DNA of 64,000 nt from Escherichia phage vB_EcoM_REC. The translations under genes and the position numbers were made by a program. Positions 9,622 through 64,000 of this stretch are shown here, in pieces. The stretch is taken from the sequence record OM386667.1; one strand, given 5' to 3'. Below the pieces are notes generated by a model. The model was not told the DNA's origin and did no database searches. It worked only from the letters and a program-made list of their open reading frames with translations. The first letter of the stretch is position 1. Each line of letters begins with the position of its first letter.

Positions 9622-10215
9622 TTACCAAGGAATATCTTCTTCTTCCAATTTGGTATCTACTTGAGGTGGACGTGGAACCTTAACCTCTTTAACAAAACGA
9701 AGATATGGAAAACGTGTAGCGATTTTAATAACATGTTTGGCATCTTCTCTAACATCTTTGTGCAAGAAGCAGATCCCTGTTTCCAAAGTTGTTTCAAAAT
9801 CTTTAGAGTAATAACAATCCTTTCCATCAAATGCAGCCTGGCAGATGGACAGATCAAACTCATTCAGAAAGGTTGTCATTACATTTGGGTCCATAATCAT
9901 AAGGTTGCAAAGCTGACCGTCACGTTCAAATTCAAAAACGTGTTTAAGACCAGTAACACCCTCGTAGTTATCAGAAGCCTCTTTGTTTCCTAGCTTACGA
10001 ACATTAGTTCCCATTAAAGCAGATGCAATTAGTTCTTGTATTTGCTCTTCTGATCGATGTGCAGGAAGTGACGTATAGAAATCCAGATCACGTCCAGCAA
10101 TATCAAGAATACGCCAATCACGAACAGCACCGCCAGCCAAGACAGAATTAGGATCAGCGATCTTTAAGACAGTAAGAATTTCTTTGGCAATGTTGATTTG
10201 TTTTGATTTAGTCAT
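9622..10215 (-). CDS. minimal nucleotidyltransferase (Pol-beta superfamily) with SSB-tip-like C-terminus
   Basis: 197 aa; GGAVRDWRILDIAGRDLDF resembles the GGxVRD...DxD head motif of CCA-adding/poly(A) polymerase-type nucleotidyltransferases; ends LEEEDIPW. Confidence 0.45.
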   Translation of the reverse strand: MTKSKQINIAKEILTVLKIADPNSVLAGGAVRDWRILDIAGRDLDFYTSLPAHRSEEQIQELIASALMGTNVRKLGNKEASDNYEGVTGLKHVFEFERDGQLCNLMIMDPNVMTTFLNEFDLSICQAAFDGKDCYYSKDFETTLETGICFLHKDVREDAKHVIKIATRFPYLRFVKEVKVPRPPQVDTKLEEEDIPW

Positions 10216-50017: not shown

Positions 50018-50556
50018 GAATAACTGATGAATATGTATTCTTCTTTTCACATAAAGATGTGTTTAGTAATTGGTATATTGCACCCTTTACAGAAACTGAA
50101 CCAGGTTACAATGAGACTTTCTGTTGTGTTGAGCAATATATGATGTGGCGTAAGGCTTTGCTGTTCAAGGATCATGCGATTGCAGCAGCTATCCTTGATC
50201 ACTCAACTATACGTGACAACGAGAGGAAACAAGCATACTACAAACGTATGGGTCGAGCGGTATCTGGTTTTAATAATGATATGTGGGAAGAGAACCGTGA
50301 GCGTATTGTTATGCGAGGCTTATGCTTGAAATATGTACAGAATCCAGATTTGTATGCAGACTTACACCTTTACCAATACAAAACGTTTGTTGAAGCAAGT
50401 CCTTACGATAAGGTTTACGGTATTGGAATGGGAATGTATGAACCAGGGGTGCTAAACCCTGCTACCTGGAAAGGGCAGAATCTTTTAGGCAAATATCATA
50501 ATAAACTGATCGAAATACTTTTCCCAGACAAAATACCGCAAAGACGATATTTGTGA
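50014..50556 (+). CDS. NADAR-domain protein (YbiA/DUF1768 family)
   Basis: 180 aa; FSNWYIAPFT, CVEQYMMWRKALLF, KYVQNPDLYADL, YDKVYGIGMG and GQNLLGKYHNKL follow the conserved NADAR blocks. Confidence 0.7.
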   Translation: MRITDEYVFFFSHKDVFSNWYIAPFTETEPGYNETFCCVEQYMMWRKALLFKDHAIAAAILDHSTIRDNERKQAYYKRMGRAVSGFNNDMWEENRERIVMRGLCLKYVQNPDLYADLHLYQYKTFVEASPYDKVYGIGMGMYEPGVLNPATWKGQNLLGKYHNKLIEILFPDKIPQRRYL

Positions 50557-50611
50557 TATTTTAACTTTTTTCATTTTTAGAACAAAGGCGTCACTTTGTA
50601 GCACAGAAATA

Positions 50612-50650
50612 AGGCTCCTACAGCACCGTAGAGAGCCTGTTATTTTGTCC
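50612..50650 (+). terminator. rho-independent terminator ending the 44.3-50.6 kb unit
   Basis: AGGCTCCTAC-agcacc-GTAGAGAGCCT (one bulge) followed by GTTATTTTG. Confidence 0.6.
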
Positions 50651-50798
50651 TATACAAACCCTTGTCTTTTTCAGTTTGCATCACTAGGATTCGATCTGAG
50701 TGGGTTCCTGAAGGTTTACCAATAAGATTAAAGGTTATATCAAATTCCCACTATCTTTTATCTCAAAAATCCCTCAAATTATTTAAACTTTTTAAGAA

Positions 50799-50984
50799 TT
50801 TACAAAAGTGAAAGTTGAAAACCAAAATTTAAAGTTTAGGAAAATTATCTTAAAATGTTAGATACAAAACAAAACTCAAAAGTCAAGGAAAATTTTAAAA
50901 ATTTTGCGCGCCCACAGTATTTAAAGTTTTTTTGCTTTTACAAAAATGAAAGTACAAAAGCAAAATTTAAAGTTTACAAAAATT
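50799..50984. repeat. AT-rich region with two 48-bp imperfect direct repeats and AAAGTT-type submotifs
   Basis: 50799-50846 TTTACAAAAGTGAAAGTTGAAAACCAAAATTTAAAGTTTAGGAAAATT versus 50937-50984 TTTACAAAAATGAAAGTACAAAAGCAAAATTTAAAGTTTACAAAAATT. Confidence 0.7.
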
Positions 50985-51000
50985 TTTATGCAGGTGAAAA

Positions 51001-51114
51001 TGAGAAGAGTTCTCATATGGAAATGCAAATGATAATGATTCGCATTTAAGTTTATAAATGAGATTGATTCTTATTTAATAAGGTAAATGACAATCATTCT
51101 CATTTAGAGAATGA
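51001..51114. promoter_or_regulatory. two palindromes (candidate protein-binding sites)
   Basis: TGAGAA-gag-TTCTCA at 51001-51015 and TCATTCTC-attta-GAGAATGA at 51094-51114. Confidence 0.4.
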
Positions 51115-51364
51115 CGCGCAGGGGTGGTGTTTGTCTCGCGCTCCCGTGTCCCCTCGCCATGTAATAAGAATAACAGATCCAACCAGGAAAGCAAGCGATT
51201 ATTTTATCTTTACATTTCTTTACAAATATATAGCACCCAGCCTACCGGCGATCAACCTTCCAACCAGTGCCCCCTGGTATGTTAGCCCCGCCTTTACGCC
51301 GTGGGGTGGCGCTTCCTCTTCTGTATGTAAAACAGTATAAGCCCGATCCCTGGGCTTGTCAAGA

Positions 51365-62012: not shown

Positions 62013-62060
62013 TATTGCGTAGGGCGAGCAATACAGCAAGCCCACAAAGAGGAAAATAAA

Positions 62061-62429
62061 ATGAGCAAATCAGCAATTAAAGCACTTGAAAAAGCACAAG
62101 AAGTGATCGCAACGTCAACCACTGGCGCAAAGGTTAATCTCGTTGGTTATCTGACAGATGAAACTATCCGTAAAAATTGGCGTAATGCTGATTTACTCGC
62201 TTGCTTATTGATTAATAGTGTCGCTAATGCTTTCCAGTGTGAAACAGCCGAGAGCCTGGAGGAAAACTTGTTTGATAATATGGATCAAGCCATTGAAACC
62301 TATATACAATCAAACCTGGATAGCTGGAACAGTAAAACATGGCCCGACAATTTACGCGATACAACTGATCAACTGATCCGCCTTGCCCTGATGGTTGAAC
62401 GCGATAACGTTCACAACCGCACAAAGTAA
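62061..62429 (+). CDS. early protein
   Basis: 122 aa; RBS AAGAGGAAAA. Confidence 0.5.
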   Translation: MSKSAIKALEKAQEVIATSTTGAKVNLVGYLTDETIRKNWRNADLLACLLINSVANAFQCETAESLEENLFDNMDQAIETYIQSNLDSWNSKTWPDNLRDTTDQLIRLALMVERDNVHNRTK

Positions 62430-62495: not shown

Positions 62496-62524
62496 TTGAC
62501 AGGGGATCGGCGTTATATTATATT
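62496..62524 (+). promoter_or_regulatory. promoter (TTGACA-17-TATATT), no leader hairpin
   Basis: -35 62496-62501 embedded in palindrome CCCCT-attgac-AGGGG, -10 62519-62524. Confidence 0.45.
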
Positions 62525-62564: not shown

Positions 62565-62984
62565 ATGAACATTAAATCAAATAATCCAGCTTACTCCTTC
62601 GATAACGCTTTTTGTCACGGTAGCGCCGCCAAAGGCTTCGAAATCGATGGTAAATTGGTTATCGTGAACGTTGACGGGGAAGAGGTTGCAGTATATCCGG
62701 TAAACGATGTTAAAAGCCGTTTACAATGCCGCATGGATGTTACCGCATATCAGCTTGATCCGATCCGTGTAGTTGCCCTGGTATTAGAGGAAGAGATCAA
62801 AGCAATGCATCACAGTAATAAGTTTATTGGTGACGCGCAGGATAATATGAACGTTTGCCGCCATAAAGTTAATGAAGCACTGAAAGAATGCGGTTTTAAG
62901 GATCTGATGATCAAACGTGATGAAAAATTCCGCTTTCGTAATGACCTGGCAAACCGGATCTACTCAATCTATGAAGCGTTATAA
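62565..62984 (+). CDS. early protein
   Basis: 139 aa from ATG 62565; track ORF starts at an ATG upstream of the promoter. Confidence 0.5.
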   Translation: MNIKSNNPAYSFDNAFCHGSAAKGFEIDGKLVIVNVDGEEVAVYPVNDVKSRLQCRMDVTAYQLDPIRVVALVLEEEIKAMHHSNKFIGDAQDNMNVCRHKVNEALKECGFKDLMIKRDEKFRFRNDLANRIYSIYEAL

Positions 62985-62999
62985 TTGACAACAAAACAA

Positions 63000-63026
63000 G
63001 GGGCGCACCAAGCGCCCTTTCTTTTT
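63000..63026 (+). terminator. rho-independent terminator closing the early array
   Basis: GGGCGC-accaa-GCGCCC followed by TTTCTTTTTG. Confidence 0.7.
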
Positions 63027-63119
63027 GCCCGAACAATGTTGATAGCTTTCGCCTATGAAAAACCGACACAGAACAAAATTGAATAAATCGCGGTATCGAG
63101 CTAATCAACCATTAAACGA

Positions 63120-63560
63120 ATAACCATACCTCCCAGGGTAACAGGCTGTTAGAGAGCCATTTATAACGGTTAAAATCGATCAACAACCAACAACAAACCA
63201 TCAAAAACACCCTTTTACCTCCTTTCTAGTGCAATGATAACCATTATCATCTATACATGATTATATATGCAATATAAGCGCATAACTATAATGTTGATAA
63301 CAGTTCGCAACAACTAACTAACCAACAACCTAAAACAATAAGCAAACTAATCATAATCAAAGGAATAATAGCAAGATGATTGATAACGACAAACAATCAA
63401 ACCATGATGAATACTAAGCAAGATAACGATAACACGACAAAACAACCAACTAACGAACAATAACAAACGAAACCATTAAAATAATAACTATTGCCATAAT
63501 AGTGACTGAATGAAATCATTACAAAACGAATCATTCCCAGGATCATCATTAGCACGCTAT
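63120..63560. other. non-coding A/C-rich, G-depleted tract (CAA/AAC-rich on the plus strand)
   Basis: runs such as AACAACCAACAACAAACCATCAAAAACACC and AAACAACCAACTAACGAACAATAACAAACGAAACC; no ORF of 60 aa or more on the plus strand from 62985 to the window end. Confidence 0.6.
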
Positions 63561-64000
63561 GCCGGACACATAGCGAGCTAATAATAAGCCAACTACACCC
63601 CAACAATCATAACCATCGGTGATGGTTATTTCTTGTTACTGCGTAGCTTGCAATAATTGCAAGCGTAATGACGCTTACACTTATTGCGCTGGCTTATTAT
63701 TAGCATTATATGTAATTACCAAGATCATAACATTAGCGCAATAACAATAATCATTGTAATAATTACAATATGAAATCATTAGCAAGATGAATAATTGCAC
63801 GTAGCAACATGAGCGAATAGCGACAGGTTGCATAGTGTGCACATAGATGTACACGTAGTGTATAAACATACAAGAAAATAAAGGCTAATCTTTTGGGGGC
63901 GAATACTATCGCGTAGCGATATGTTGAGCACCTTCTCTTAAACGTAAATAAAATCAGAAAATTCTTGATTTATTTTAGTTTTTATGTTAATAAACGTTTA

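Follow-up and report, generated by a model that had tools for sequence, protein, structure and literature searches.

The stretch considered here comprises 64,000 nucleotides of one strand of Escherichia phage vB_EcoM_REC (OM386667.1), hereafter the window, and close to its right edge lies a conserved non-coding region of approximately 900 bases (63021-63926). This region is the inner flank of the right direct terminal repeat (DTR) and thereby a genome-end, or concatemer-junction, module, which contains the last unique DNA of the genome. A first-pass annotation made from the letters of the window had drawn attention to a G-depleted tract in this place and had proposed, among several options, a genome terminus or packaging region. 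The position of the region relative to the DTR and the conservation of its architecture are established directly by comparison with related phages. By analogy with other phages, we consider it somewhat less than evenly probable (roughly 0.45) that the flank acts in cis, as DNA, in the maturation, packaging, and end replication of the genome, and that the tract would serve in it as a composition-constrained, structure-free spacer.

Window positions 62900-64000 are 100% identical to Escherichia phage vB_EcoM_ESCO37 (OM386659, record positions 147915-149015), a phAPEC8-like coliphage and myovirus classified in Phapecoctavirus, Stephanstirmvirinae. A gap of 1.55 kb without annotated genes extends from the last plus-strand gene, which ends at window position 62984, to the next gene at record position 361; the ESCO37 record was opened within this gap, and phAPEC8 has the same sequence contiguous. 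An exact direct repeat of 329 bp is present at both record ends of the close relative Schickermooser, whose DTR has been published as 328 bp (PMC6563267). A DTR of 342 bp was determined by PhageTerm in BME3 (PMC12210895), and the annotated right terminal repeat (DTR-R) of phi92 has a start homologous to window position 63927. The repeats of Schickermooser and phi92 begin at one homologous position, GTTG^AGC (window 63926/63927, where ^ marks the edge), and position 63926 is also the exact end of three further records. Since the DTR starts at 63927, the earlier suggestion of a genome terminus or packaging region was essentially right, and the G-poor tract sits 390-760 bp inside the right genome end. 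The ESCO37 GenBank record contains one DTR copy only and was linearised inside it (window-equivalent 64179/64180), so that its ends are not the physical ends of virion DNA.

The left edge of the DTR reads ATGTTG^AGCAC, and the right edge, CGCGTTA^AGCAC, is located 329 bp further on, beyond the window. GTTG^AGC was found at the left edge in 17/17 sequences examined; 15 sequences reach the right edge, and every one of them has CGCGTTA^AGCA there. GTTR^AGCAC is common to both edges. The right edge (GGCCCGAAAAWTCGCGTTA^AGCAC, ESCO37 record positions 1-75 and homologues) is strongly conserved and resembles the left one, a likeness in sequence that suggests two related nicking sites. Three properties of short-DTR (T7-type) ends are seen here: an exact repeat at both ends (in relatives), a region that abuts this repeat, and a conserved cleavage-site sequence. 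Inside the window, the start of the DTR comprises an AT-rich hairpin (63940-63981) and, beginning at 63998, the third of several palindromes resembling Fur boxes.

BLAST searches detected the region in 138 phage records. Members of Phapecoctavirus aligned throughout, those of other genera over the first approximately 200 nt and the core only, and many relatives align no further than window position 63784. The gap was read in phiWec186, phi92, arall, PaulScherrer, EC_OE_11, and Citrobacter phage Tr1, as well as in Klebsiella phages KP13-26, phi1_175008, and KP2025, several metagenomic contigs, and the rV5-like phage TH18. One element order is shared by Phapecoctavirus, Justusliebigvirus, unclassified Klebsiella and Citrobacter phages, and four metagenomic lineages. 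It begins with a terminator, a block containing GCGGTATCGAGCTAAT, and two Fur-box-like palindromes approximately 58 nt apart that flank a TGCATAA-type palindrome, continues with a G-poor tract of 250-400 nt, ATCATTAGC-type repeats, and a 160-nt multi-hairpin core, and ends with variable lineage-specific hairpins and TATTATTAGC iterons, one to three cut-site units, and the DTR. The corresponding features of the window are as follows.

62998-63020, plus strand: intrinsic terminator of the last plus-strand gene (AAGGGGCGCACCAAGCGCCCTTT then CTTTTTG), with a homologue in all lineages examined.
63021-63170, no strand assigned: conserved block 1, including GCGGTATCGAGCTAAT, defined by BLAST matches and sequence comparison.
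63100, 63577, and 63884: iterons in inverted orientation (GCTAAT), found in the sequence.
63170-63540, plus strand: G-poor, A+C-rich tract, defined by composition; its minus strand is C-poor and GTT-rich, and it is predicted to lack stable structure.
63230-63251, no strand assigned: Fur-box-like palindrome 1 (TGCAATGATAACCATTATC), with 15/19 matches to the GATAATGATAATCATTATC consensus.
63266-63305, no strand assigned: TATGCA-N-GCATAA palindrome followed by a degenerate second box (TATAATGTTGATAACAGTT), read from the sequences.
63511-63556, plus strand: AATCATT(A) direct repeats (repeat family D1) running into the first ATTAGC iteron.
63548-63783, plus strand: ATTAGC(A) iterons at 63548, 63699, 63732, and 63778, identified by an enrichment count.
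63555-63575, minus strand: hairpin A (CGCTATG/CATAGCG, 7-nt loop), in which 3/7 pairs covary and pairing is 100% among 25 distinct sequences.
63577-63704, minus strand: multi-branch domain closed by the 15-bp stem B (63577-63591 with 63690-63704), supported by covariation and folds.
63705-63890, no strand assigned: variable mosaic hairpin-and-iteron region, which holds a duplication restricted to ESCO37 and the non-conserved palindrome TGTGCACA.
63891-63926, plus strand: cut-site unit consisting of TTTTGGGGGCGAA, the hairpin ATCGC-gta-GCGAT (63908-63920), and ATGTTG, conserved in most lineages.
63927-64000, no strand assigned: first 74 nt of the 329-bp DTR (AGCACCTTCTCTTAAACG...), placed by the Schickermooser DTR, the phi92 annotation, record ends, and BME3.

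The terminator, described in the first-pass annotation as preceding the tract and indeed a strong intrinsic one, forms the left border of the non-coding region. Block 1 is the sole part that can be aligned out to rV5-like Vequintavirinae (BLAST matches over query positions 1-85), and repeats homologous to AATCATT(A), namely aatcattagcaag, are present in other lineages. The G-poor tract is unalignable between genera, yet its G content is 3-12% and its C content 15-30%; the comparison with related phages that had been suggested as a check therefore shows G depletion, and not sequence, to be kept across genera. In every lineage, the sign of GC skew is negative on the left side of the core and positive on the right side of the DTR. 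In TH18 (locus L021, 3330-4220), the terminator, the conserved block, and the two boxes are retained, but the core differs and is made of long inverted repeats (e.g., GCGACACAATAACGC...GCGTTATTGTGTCGC) and TTATTGTGTCAC iterons, flanked by an AC-rich tract on the left and a very GT-rich tract on the right (A+C 0.21-0.28).

Among the Stephanstirmvirinae records of the phage collection with a match to the 160-nt element, the element is conserved. In addition to hairpin A and stem B, it contains, inside stem B, the helix CTACAC/GCGTAG, hairpin C (63609-63629), hairpin D (63646-63664), and alternative pairings of GCAATAAT, CGTAAT, and ATTGCG. When an alignment of 25 distinct core sequences was tested on the plus strand, every cell of hairpin A and stem B was paired (100%), with seven covarying pairs, and the four-helix structure was paired in 98% of cells with 13 pairs changed on both sides, which are the compensatory changes expected of a structured RNA. 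None of 500 shuffles reached the observed covariation values, and slid controls gave 24-48% pairing in the plus-strand test and 26-52% in the minus-strand test. When all 45 pairs were considered (45 x 25 = 1125 cells), standard pairing was found in 1125/1125 cells on the minus strand and in 93.6% on the plus strand, for a structure that was predicted on the same alignment, which favours structure, and in which the invariant outer half of stem B is also an iteron. The two strands differ because some positions with G.U on the minus strand have A.C on the plus strand. This is clearest in the 5-bp helix CTACAC/GYRTAG (plus strand), which always has one wobble pair in either of two states. The RNAalifold consensus energy is -59.2 kcal/mol for the minus and -45.9 kcal/mol for the plus strand, and single-sequence folds gave -60.9 kcal/mol (z = -7.3) for plus RNA, -76.8 kcal/mol (z = -9.3) for minus RNA, and z = -8.7 for plus DNA. 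Considering both the pairing (100% versus 93.6%) and the better energies, the folded strand of the element is most likely the minus strand.

These observations bear on a first alternative, in which the region would encode a leftward, minus-sense structured non-coding RNA whose 5' part is the 160-nt domain (63704 to 63555) and whose C-poor, G/U-rich, Rho-resistant tail is the tract. Such an RNA might prime replication near the end or form an R-loop for it, or it might have a part in regulation or packaging. Beyond the complete pairing, the folding energies, and the wobbles where the plus strand has mismatches, one-sided AU/GU and UG/CG changes of the kind typical of RNA helices speak for it, as does a -10-like hexamer just upstream of stem B on the minus strand that was recognized by eye in several lineages and is not universal. 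On the other hand, the outer, invariant part of stem B recurs as an iteron in a double-stranded DNA context, and the counted structure comes from the alignment on which it was counted. No Rfam family was found either: a scan of the whole gap with Rfam 15 on both strands, with E-values up to 10, returned noise only and nothing with E < 1. Scans for sigma70 promoters on both strands in 14 lineages revealed no positionally conserved site in the gap (phage-specific promoters were outside the scan), and the number of promoter-like sites, eight versus 6.1 +/- 2.7 expected, was at the chance level. Only the terminator of the upstream gene is conserved, no conserved minus-strand terminator was detected by the terminator scan, and the predicted minus-strand terminator activity of the 63001-63017 hairpin is confined to Phapecoctavirus. 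On this evidence, we regard a minus-sense RNA as the main rival reading, a serious one, but less probable than a DNA module.

Several further observations concern the element and its neighbours. Hairpin C was considered as a terminator and rejected, because the T-run after it is not conserved. Within 63646-63704, the segment ATTGCG can pair either with CGTAAT (stem E) or with GCAAT in hairpin D, and T/C-with-A/G covariation between genera is seen for both pairings, so that the segment may be a conformational switch or, alternatively, three copies of one 8-mer or iteron evolving in concert. The putative stem E, at which the phi92 group is displaced by one column in the MAFFT alignment, competes with the covarying helix GCAAYAAT/ATTRTTGC. 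The core has no second copy in the window, and a search of bacterial genomes yielded one match, in a Melioribacter metagenome-assembled genome, which is most likely due to chance, so that no satellite or host copy is evident. The PHIRE promoters annotated in phAPEC8 are in fact a hairpin in the 5' untranslated region downstream of sigma70 promoters and are absent from the gap. These phAPEC8 elements (locus L002, 394-413 and 1809-1828) are a conserved 5' untranslated stem-loop, GTAGGGCGGCAATGGTGCCGCC, directly after TTGACA-N17-TAATAT promoters, and a similar hairpin is found at approximately 62018-62045, before the gene at window position 62061.

The composition of the tract is partly as first described. 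Over 63170-63620, the plus strand contains 45.5% A, 22.8% C, 10.4% G, and 21.3% T, and its G content is approximately 2.4 standard deviations below the window mean (18.9%, standard deviation 3.6%, in 450-nt segments). G is thus low, but the description "almost free of G" was overstated: equally low values occur elsewhere in the window (e.g., at 10188 and 28405), and the G-poor part stops near 63540, with a normal G content (19.9%) over 63620-63930. The dominance of A and C with CAA and AAC runs is borne out, as A+C reaches 0.74 in the 200-nt segment at 63297, which is the maximum of the 64-kb window and approximately 5 standard deviations above its mean (0.512, standard deviation 0.046), and the commonest triplets are AAC, TAA, and CAA. 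The tract has a GC content of 30-35%, and GTT occurs 32 times on its minus strand versus twice on the plus strand. The absence of a credible open reading frame also holds, since the longest frames in 63021-63926 encode low-complexity products of 27-69 amino acids and the frames of the gap have no Pfam or PHROG matches.

In this genome, the sense strand of genes is G-rich, so that the tract shows the polarity of a minus-sense region in exaggerated form, in agreement with the strand preference of the neighbouring fold; this polarity also counts for the minus-sense RNA discussed above. Judging from these two properties of the sequence, the tract most likely marks a zone in which the minus strand is exposed, or is the sense strand, in a process running leftward from the end, for which strand displacement, lagging-strand priming, or a leftward transcript would be candidates. 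The composition may nevertheless be read in two ways, either as leftward exposure or transcription of the minus strand or as a plus-sense, rut-like target for Rho with more C than G. In the latter case, read-through RNA would recruit Rho and transcription would be halted before the cut site and the DTR, which is compatible with a role as an end module. Like rut regions, the tract is G-poor with C in excess of G, unstructured, untranslated, and longer than 80 nt, and it has no sequence consensus; rut sites are conserved in composition without conservation of sequence. The C/G ratio is approximately 2.2 in ESCO37 and 3-5 in other lineages over 300-400 nt, which agrees with the composition of rut sites over at least 80 nt, the plus-sense RNA is nearly unstructured (-11.7 kcal/mol per 240 nt, z = 0.08), and plus-strand genes lie just upstream, the last with a strong promoter at 62496 (11/12 matches) and a strong terminator. 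In addition, beyond the DTR the plus strand is poor in C, and that side would therefore be rut-like for incoming minus-sense transcripts. However, rut regions differ in that here a strong intrinsic terminator already precedes the tract and plus-sense transcription of the tract is putative. Shuffled sequences fold with the same energy, so that composition alone accounts for the absence of structure, and the strand indicated by the neighbouring fold and by the polarity of the skew is the other one. Rho activity at the tract is a prediction from sequence, and we consider it unlikely to be the function of the tract.

The first-pass annotation had also speculated about an A-rich (AAN)n RNA and Hfq; in this reading, the tract would be transcribed in the plus sense into an RNA without structure that serves as a ligand or sponge of Hfq or CsrA. 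The abundance of AAC and CAA triplets, the predicted lack of structure on the plus strand, and an enrichment of AAYAAYAA-type words (AATAATAA, 13 observed versus 0.29 expected, with part of the count coming from stem B) are consistent with this idea. The lag-3 (AAC)n periodicity is modest in Phapecoctavirus (z = 3.3-3.8), and absent in phi92-like (phi92, z = 0.1) and metagenomic lineages (z <= 0.3). In the lineages of Klebsiella and Citrobacter phages, it is weak or varies from one to another (z = 1.1-2.4), although G depletion is retained in all of these groups. Since the periodicity is limited to one genus, an Hfq-binding RNA does not explain the property that is conserved. Moreover, GGA motifs for CsrA are absent from such a G-poor RNA, no plus-strand promoter was found in the gap, and the structural and skew evidence favours the other strand. 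This proposal, which did not survive the comparison between genera, is now highly improbable.

To the right of the 160-nt element lies the variable sequence with lineage-specific hairpins and iterons. Short hairpins, which had been noticed as a cluster, are indeed enriched: 12 perfect hairpins (stem of at least 5, loop 3-4) were observed versus 2.5 +/- 1.6 in shuffles, and none of 300 shuffles reached 12. The individual examples fared differently. The hairpin TACAC-gta-GTGTA (63850-63862) lies within a 12-nt insertion specific to ESCO37 that is part of an 11-nt tandem repeat; it is created by a tandem duplication (63831-63862) seen only in ESCO37 and is absent from phAPEC8, Schickermooser, ESCO5, EF1-1, and phiWec186. 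The palindrome TGTGCACA (63836-63843) is not conserved, and 8-nt palindromes are not enriched (three observed versus 4.5 expected). By contrast, the structure of the hairpin ATCGC-gta-GCGAT is conserved and covaries between lineages. It belongs to the cut-site unit, which is made up of a G-run, an A-run, this covarying hairpin, and GTTG^AGC, and its stem sequence varies by lineage while the pairing is always kept. The cut-site unit occurs in tandem with a 67-nt period in some phages, with three copies in KP13-26 (locus L010, 3095-3235) and two in Tr1, KP2025, and a metagenomic locus (loci L009, L015, and L030); in these tandem arrangements, the sequence of the DTR start follows only the last copy.

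ATTAGC is approximately 16-fold enriched in the gap (23 observed versus 1.5 expected in five lineages) and TTATTAGC approximately 80-fold; ATTAGC and TATTATTAGC, 16- to 80-fold enriched, lie beside an AT-rich tract, as expected of iteron-type origins. A third way of reading the region is consequently an origin at the genome end, in which the ATTAGC iterons would bind a phage initiator, the hairpins would act as single-strand initiation (ssi) signals, and the tract would be the unwinding element. In RSF1010 oriV (ssiA/ssiB) and the complementary-strand origins of G4 and M13, iterons likewise stand beside strand-specific hairpins and an AT-rich asymmetric stretch, and the region may also be likened to ColE1 RNA II, in which a structured 5' domain is followed by a G-rich R-loop stretch. 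The iteron enrichment, the change in the sign of GC skew at the core, as at bidirectional origins, the stable hairpins on one strand, the AC-rich left and GT-rich right sides of a different hairpin-iteron core in TH18, and the T7 replication promoters annotated near both ends (phiOL and phiOR) all agree with an origin. In contrast to the known ssi and iteron origins, the region shows no sequence or Rfam similarity to them, and differs in its position at a linear genome end; any link to an initiator or primase would be putative, and no initiator gene was identified next to it. The gap contains 0 DnaA boxes and one IHF-like site, GATC is under-represented (5 per kb in the gap, i.e., window 62985-64000 and the rest, versus 10 per kb window-wide, both strands), and skew at such a scale tracks gene orientation in this genome. 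An AT-rich region at 50.5-51.3 kb with iterons of its own is at least as origin-like, and an origin function of the terminal region is quite improbable.

This second large non-coding region (50502-51310) is located between the GTP cyclohydrolase II gene and a minus-strand open reading frame. It is AT-rich and contains approximately three copies of the iteron-like repeat CAAAATTTAAAGTTTA and, after these, the three Fur-box-like palindromes AATGAGAAGAGTTCTCAT at 50999, GCAAATGATAATGATTCGCATTT at 51025, and GTAAATGACAATCATTCTCATTT at 51083 (span 50999-51105). From these features, it is a candidate replication origin or divergent control region.

Fur-box-like palindromes of the form AATGATAAYCATTMTCAT are found at conserved positions of the genome end, two left of the tract and two inside the DTR. 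They were located at 63230-63251, from 63998 onward, and at 149192-149194 plus 1-20 of the ESCO37 record, as well as at 2213, 2271, 3150, and 3345 of locus L007. At the position homologous to box 1, 14-16 of 19 matches were found in all lineages scanned except Tr1 and mg30, where the box is visible by eye below the threshold of 14/19. Box 2, degenerate in the window, scores 15-16/19 in phi92-like, Klebsiella-phage, and metagenomic lineages, approximately 58 nt after the first. The four positions are kept in most of the Stephanstirmvirinae lineages examined, with Tr1, mg30, and mg31 lacking one or two of them at 14/19, and such palindromes are also present at conserved positions in an rV5-like phage. 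Overall, these putative sites match the 19-bp Fur consensus at 14-17 positions, in comparison with 12-16/19 for authentic operators when the score was calibrated on the ent-fep operators of MG1655 (fepA-fes 12-13, fepD-entS 16, fepB 15, and entC 15 of 19), and 21 matches of at least 14/19 were observed in 68 kb versus 5.6 expected. The phage palindromes share the TGATAAT-n-ATTCTCA 7-1-7 form of the fepB site with E. coli Fur operators (consensus GATAATGATAATCATTATC). They differ from these operators in that they belong to a lytic phage, lie at genome-end and other non-coding positions and not over an identified promoter, and prefer ATTCTCAT in their own consensus; a phage protein, instead of Fur, could be the ligand. 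A sigma70 promoter, TTGACA-N17-TAGACT in phi92, was read from the sequences as conserved within the DTR, beyond the window, where it stands between two Fur-like boxes and is directed rightward, to the first genes. A literature search revealed no earlier mention of Fur boxes in lytic phages.

Taken to its furthest, the evidence on the fold and the boxes might mean that the 160-nt element is a new class of structured phage RNA or a single-stranded DNA signal, in either case produced or laid bare by a leftward process from the genome end, that the tract is a Rho-resistant tail, and that the junction is wired to iron status via bona fide Fur boxes at the four positions. We regard this combination as doubtful.

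Judged by analogy, the closest known counterpart of the region is the concatemer junction of T7 and T3, on which the mechanism proposed below is modelled. There, the terminal repeat stands between the short-repeat arrays SRL and SRR, and pacB and pacC, phiOR, and a fold-back inverted repeat are present as well. Both the DTR of T7 (160 bp) and the one described here (329 bp) are short and exact and are directly flanked by non-coding DNA, inverted repeats adjoin the terminal repeat in both, and an early sigma70 promoter lies just inside the left end (A1-A3 in T7; the TAGACT promoter in the DTR here). The T7 SRL (161-345), which directly follows the 160-bp repeat, has 8-11% G and 67-71% A+C and is near the tract in composition. 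The packaging signal of T7 (pacB and pacC) is located in the concatemer junction (PMC9860248). The two systems also differ. There is no sequence similarity between them, T7 uses its own RNA polymerase at the junction, and neither the covarying 160-nt element nor the Fur-like boxes have an equivalent in T7.

On this model, the flank would be the left half of the junction in concatemers, in which genomes would be joined head to tail via a single DTR copy. The iteron- and hairpin-rich flank would be recognised by the maturation and packaging machinery, nicks would be made at ATGTTG^AGCAC (63926/63927) and at CGCGTTA^AGCAC (329 bp on), the DTR would be duplicated by strand-displacement synthesis, and packaging would begin from the right end. 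The G-poor tract would keep the 160-nt element apart from the terminator, block 1, and the two Fur-like boxes. Whereas the covariation and the strand preference of the fold are directly established, we infer that proteins bind the region, how nicking takes place, in which direction packaging runs, and what part the tract plays.

Several points weigh against a cis-acting DNA module of this kind. The tract lies 390-760 bp from the cut site, which is farther than the pacB sites lie in T7 and T3, and recognition of double-stranded DNA does not need perfect covariation, whereas one-sided changes of the G.U type are more RNA-like. The strongly G-poor array of T7 is on the opposite side of the repeat, and T7 arrays consist of clear CCTAAAG heptamer repeats (13-nt lag, z = 8.6), while the likeness here is in composition only; a T7-like heptamer array was considered for the tract and is not present, with only a weak enrichment of TAAC and CTAA. 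In addition, the view that strand exposure shaped the tract draws on composition and the neighbouring fold, and recognition of the flank by terminase (TerS) or another protein is predicted.

The DTRs reported in Stephanstirmvirinae (phi92, Schickermooser, and BME3) are the same repeat at the same homologous position, the left edge of which is contained in the window, and the reports give the repeat length only. How the flank is organised was not described in the literature searched, and neither were the motif at the cut site, the covarying element, and the G-poor tract. The DTR itself was already known; its flank architecture and cut-site motif, together with the strand-specific fold and the Fur-like boxes, apparently lack an earlier description.

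Phages related to phAPEC8, phi92, and rV5 are widely isolated and are included in therapy cocktails, although the cutting, packaging, and replication of their genomes are undescribed. The present analysis fixes the cut sites as GTTG^AGCAC and CGCGTTA^AGCAC and identifies approximately 900 bp beside the terminal repeat as a conserved and proposed cis-acting region, the parts of which (iterons, a strand-preferring 160-nt fold, a G-poor spacer, and Fur-like boxes) are now defined. With this information, genome records could be opened at their true ends, and transducing particles or synthetic genomes could be given designed packaging signals. If the fold proves to be an RNA, it would represent a new class of phage RNA, and if the boxes bind Fur, they would link the iron status of the cell with the development of a lytic phage.

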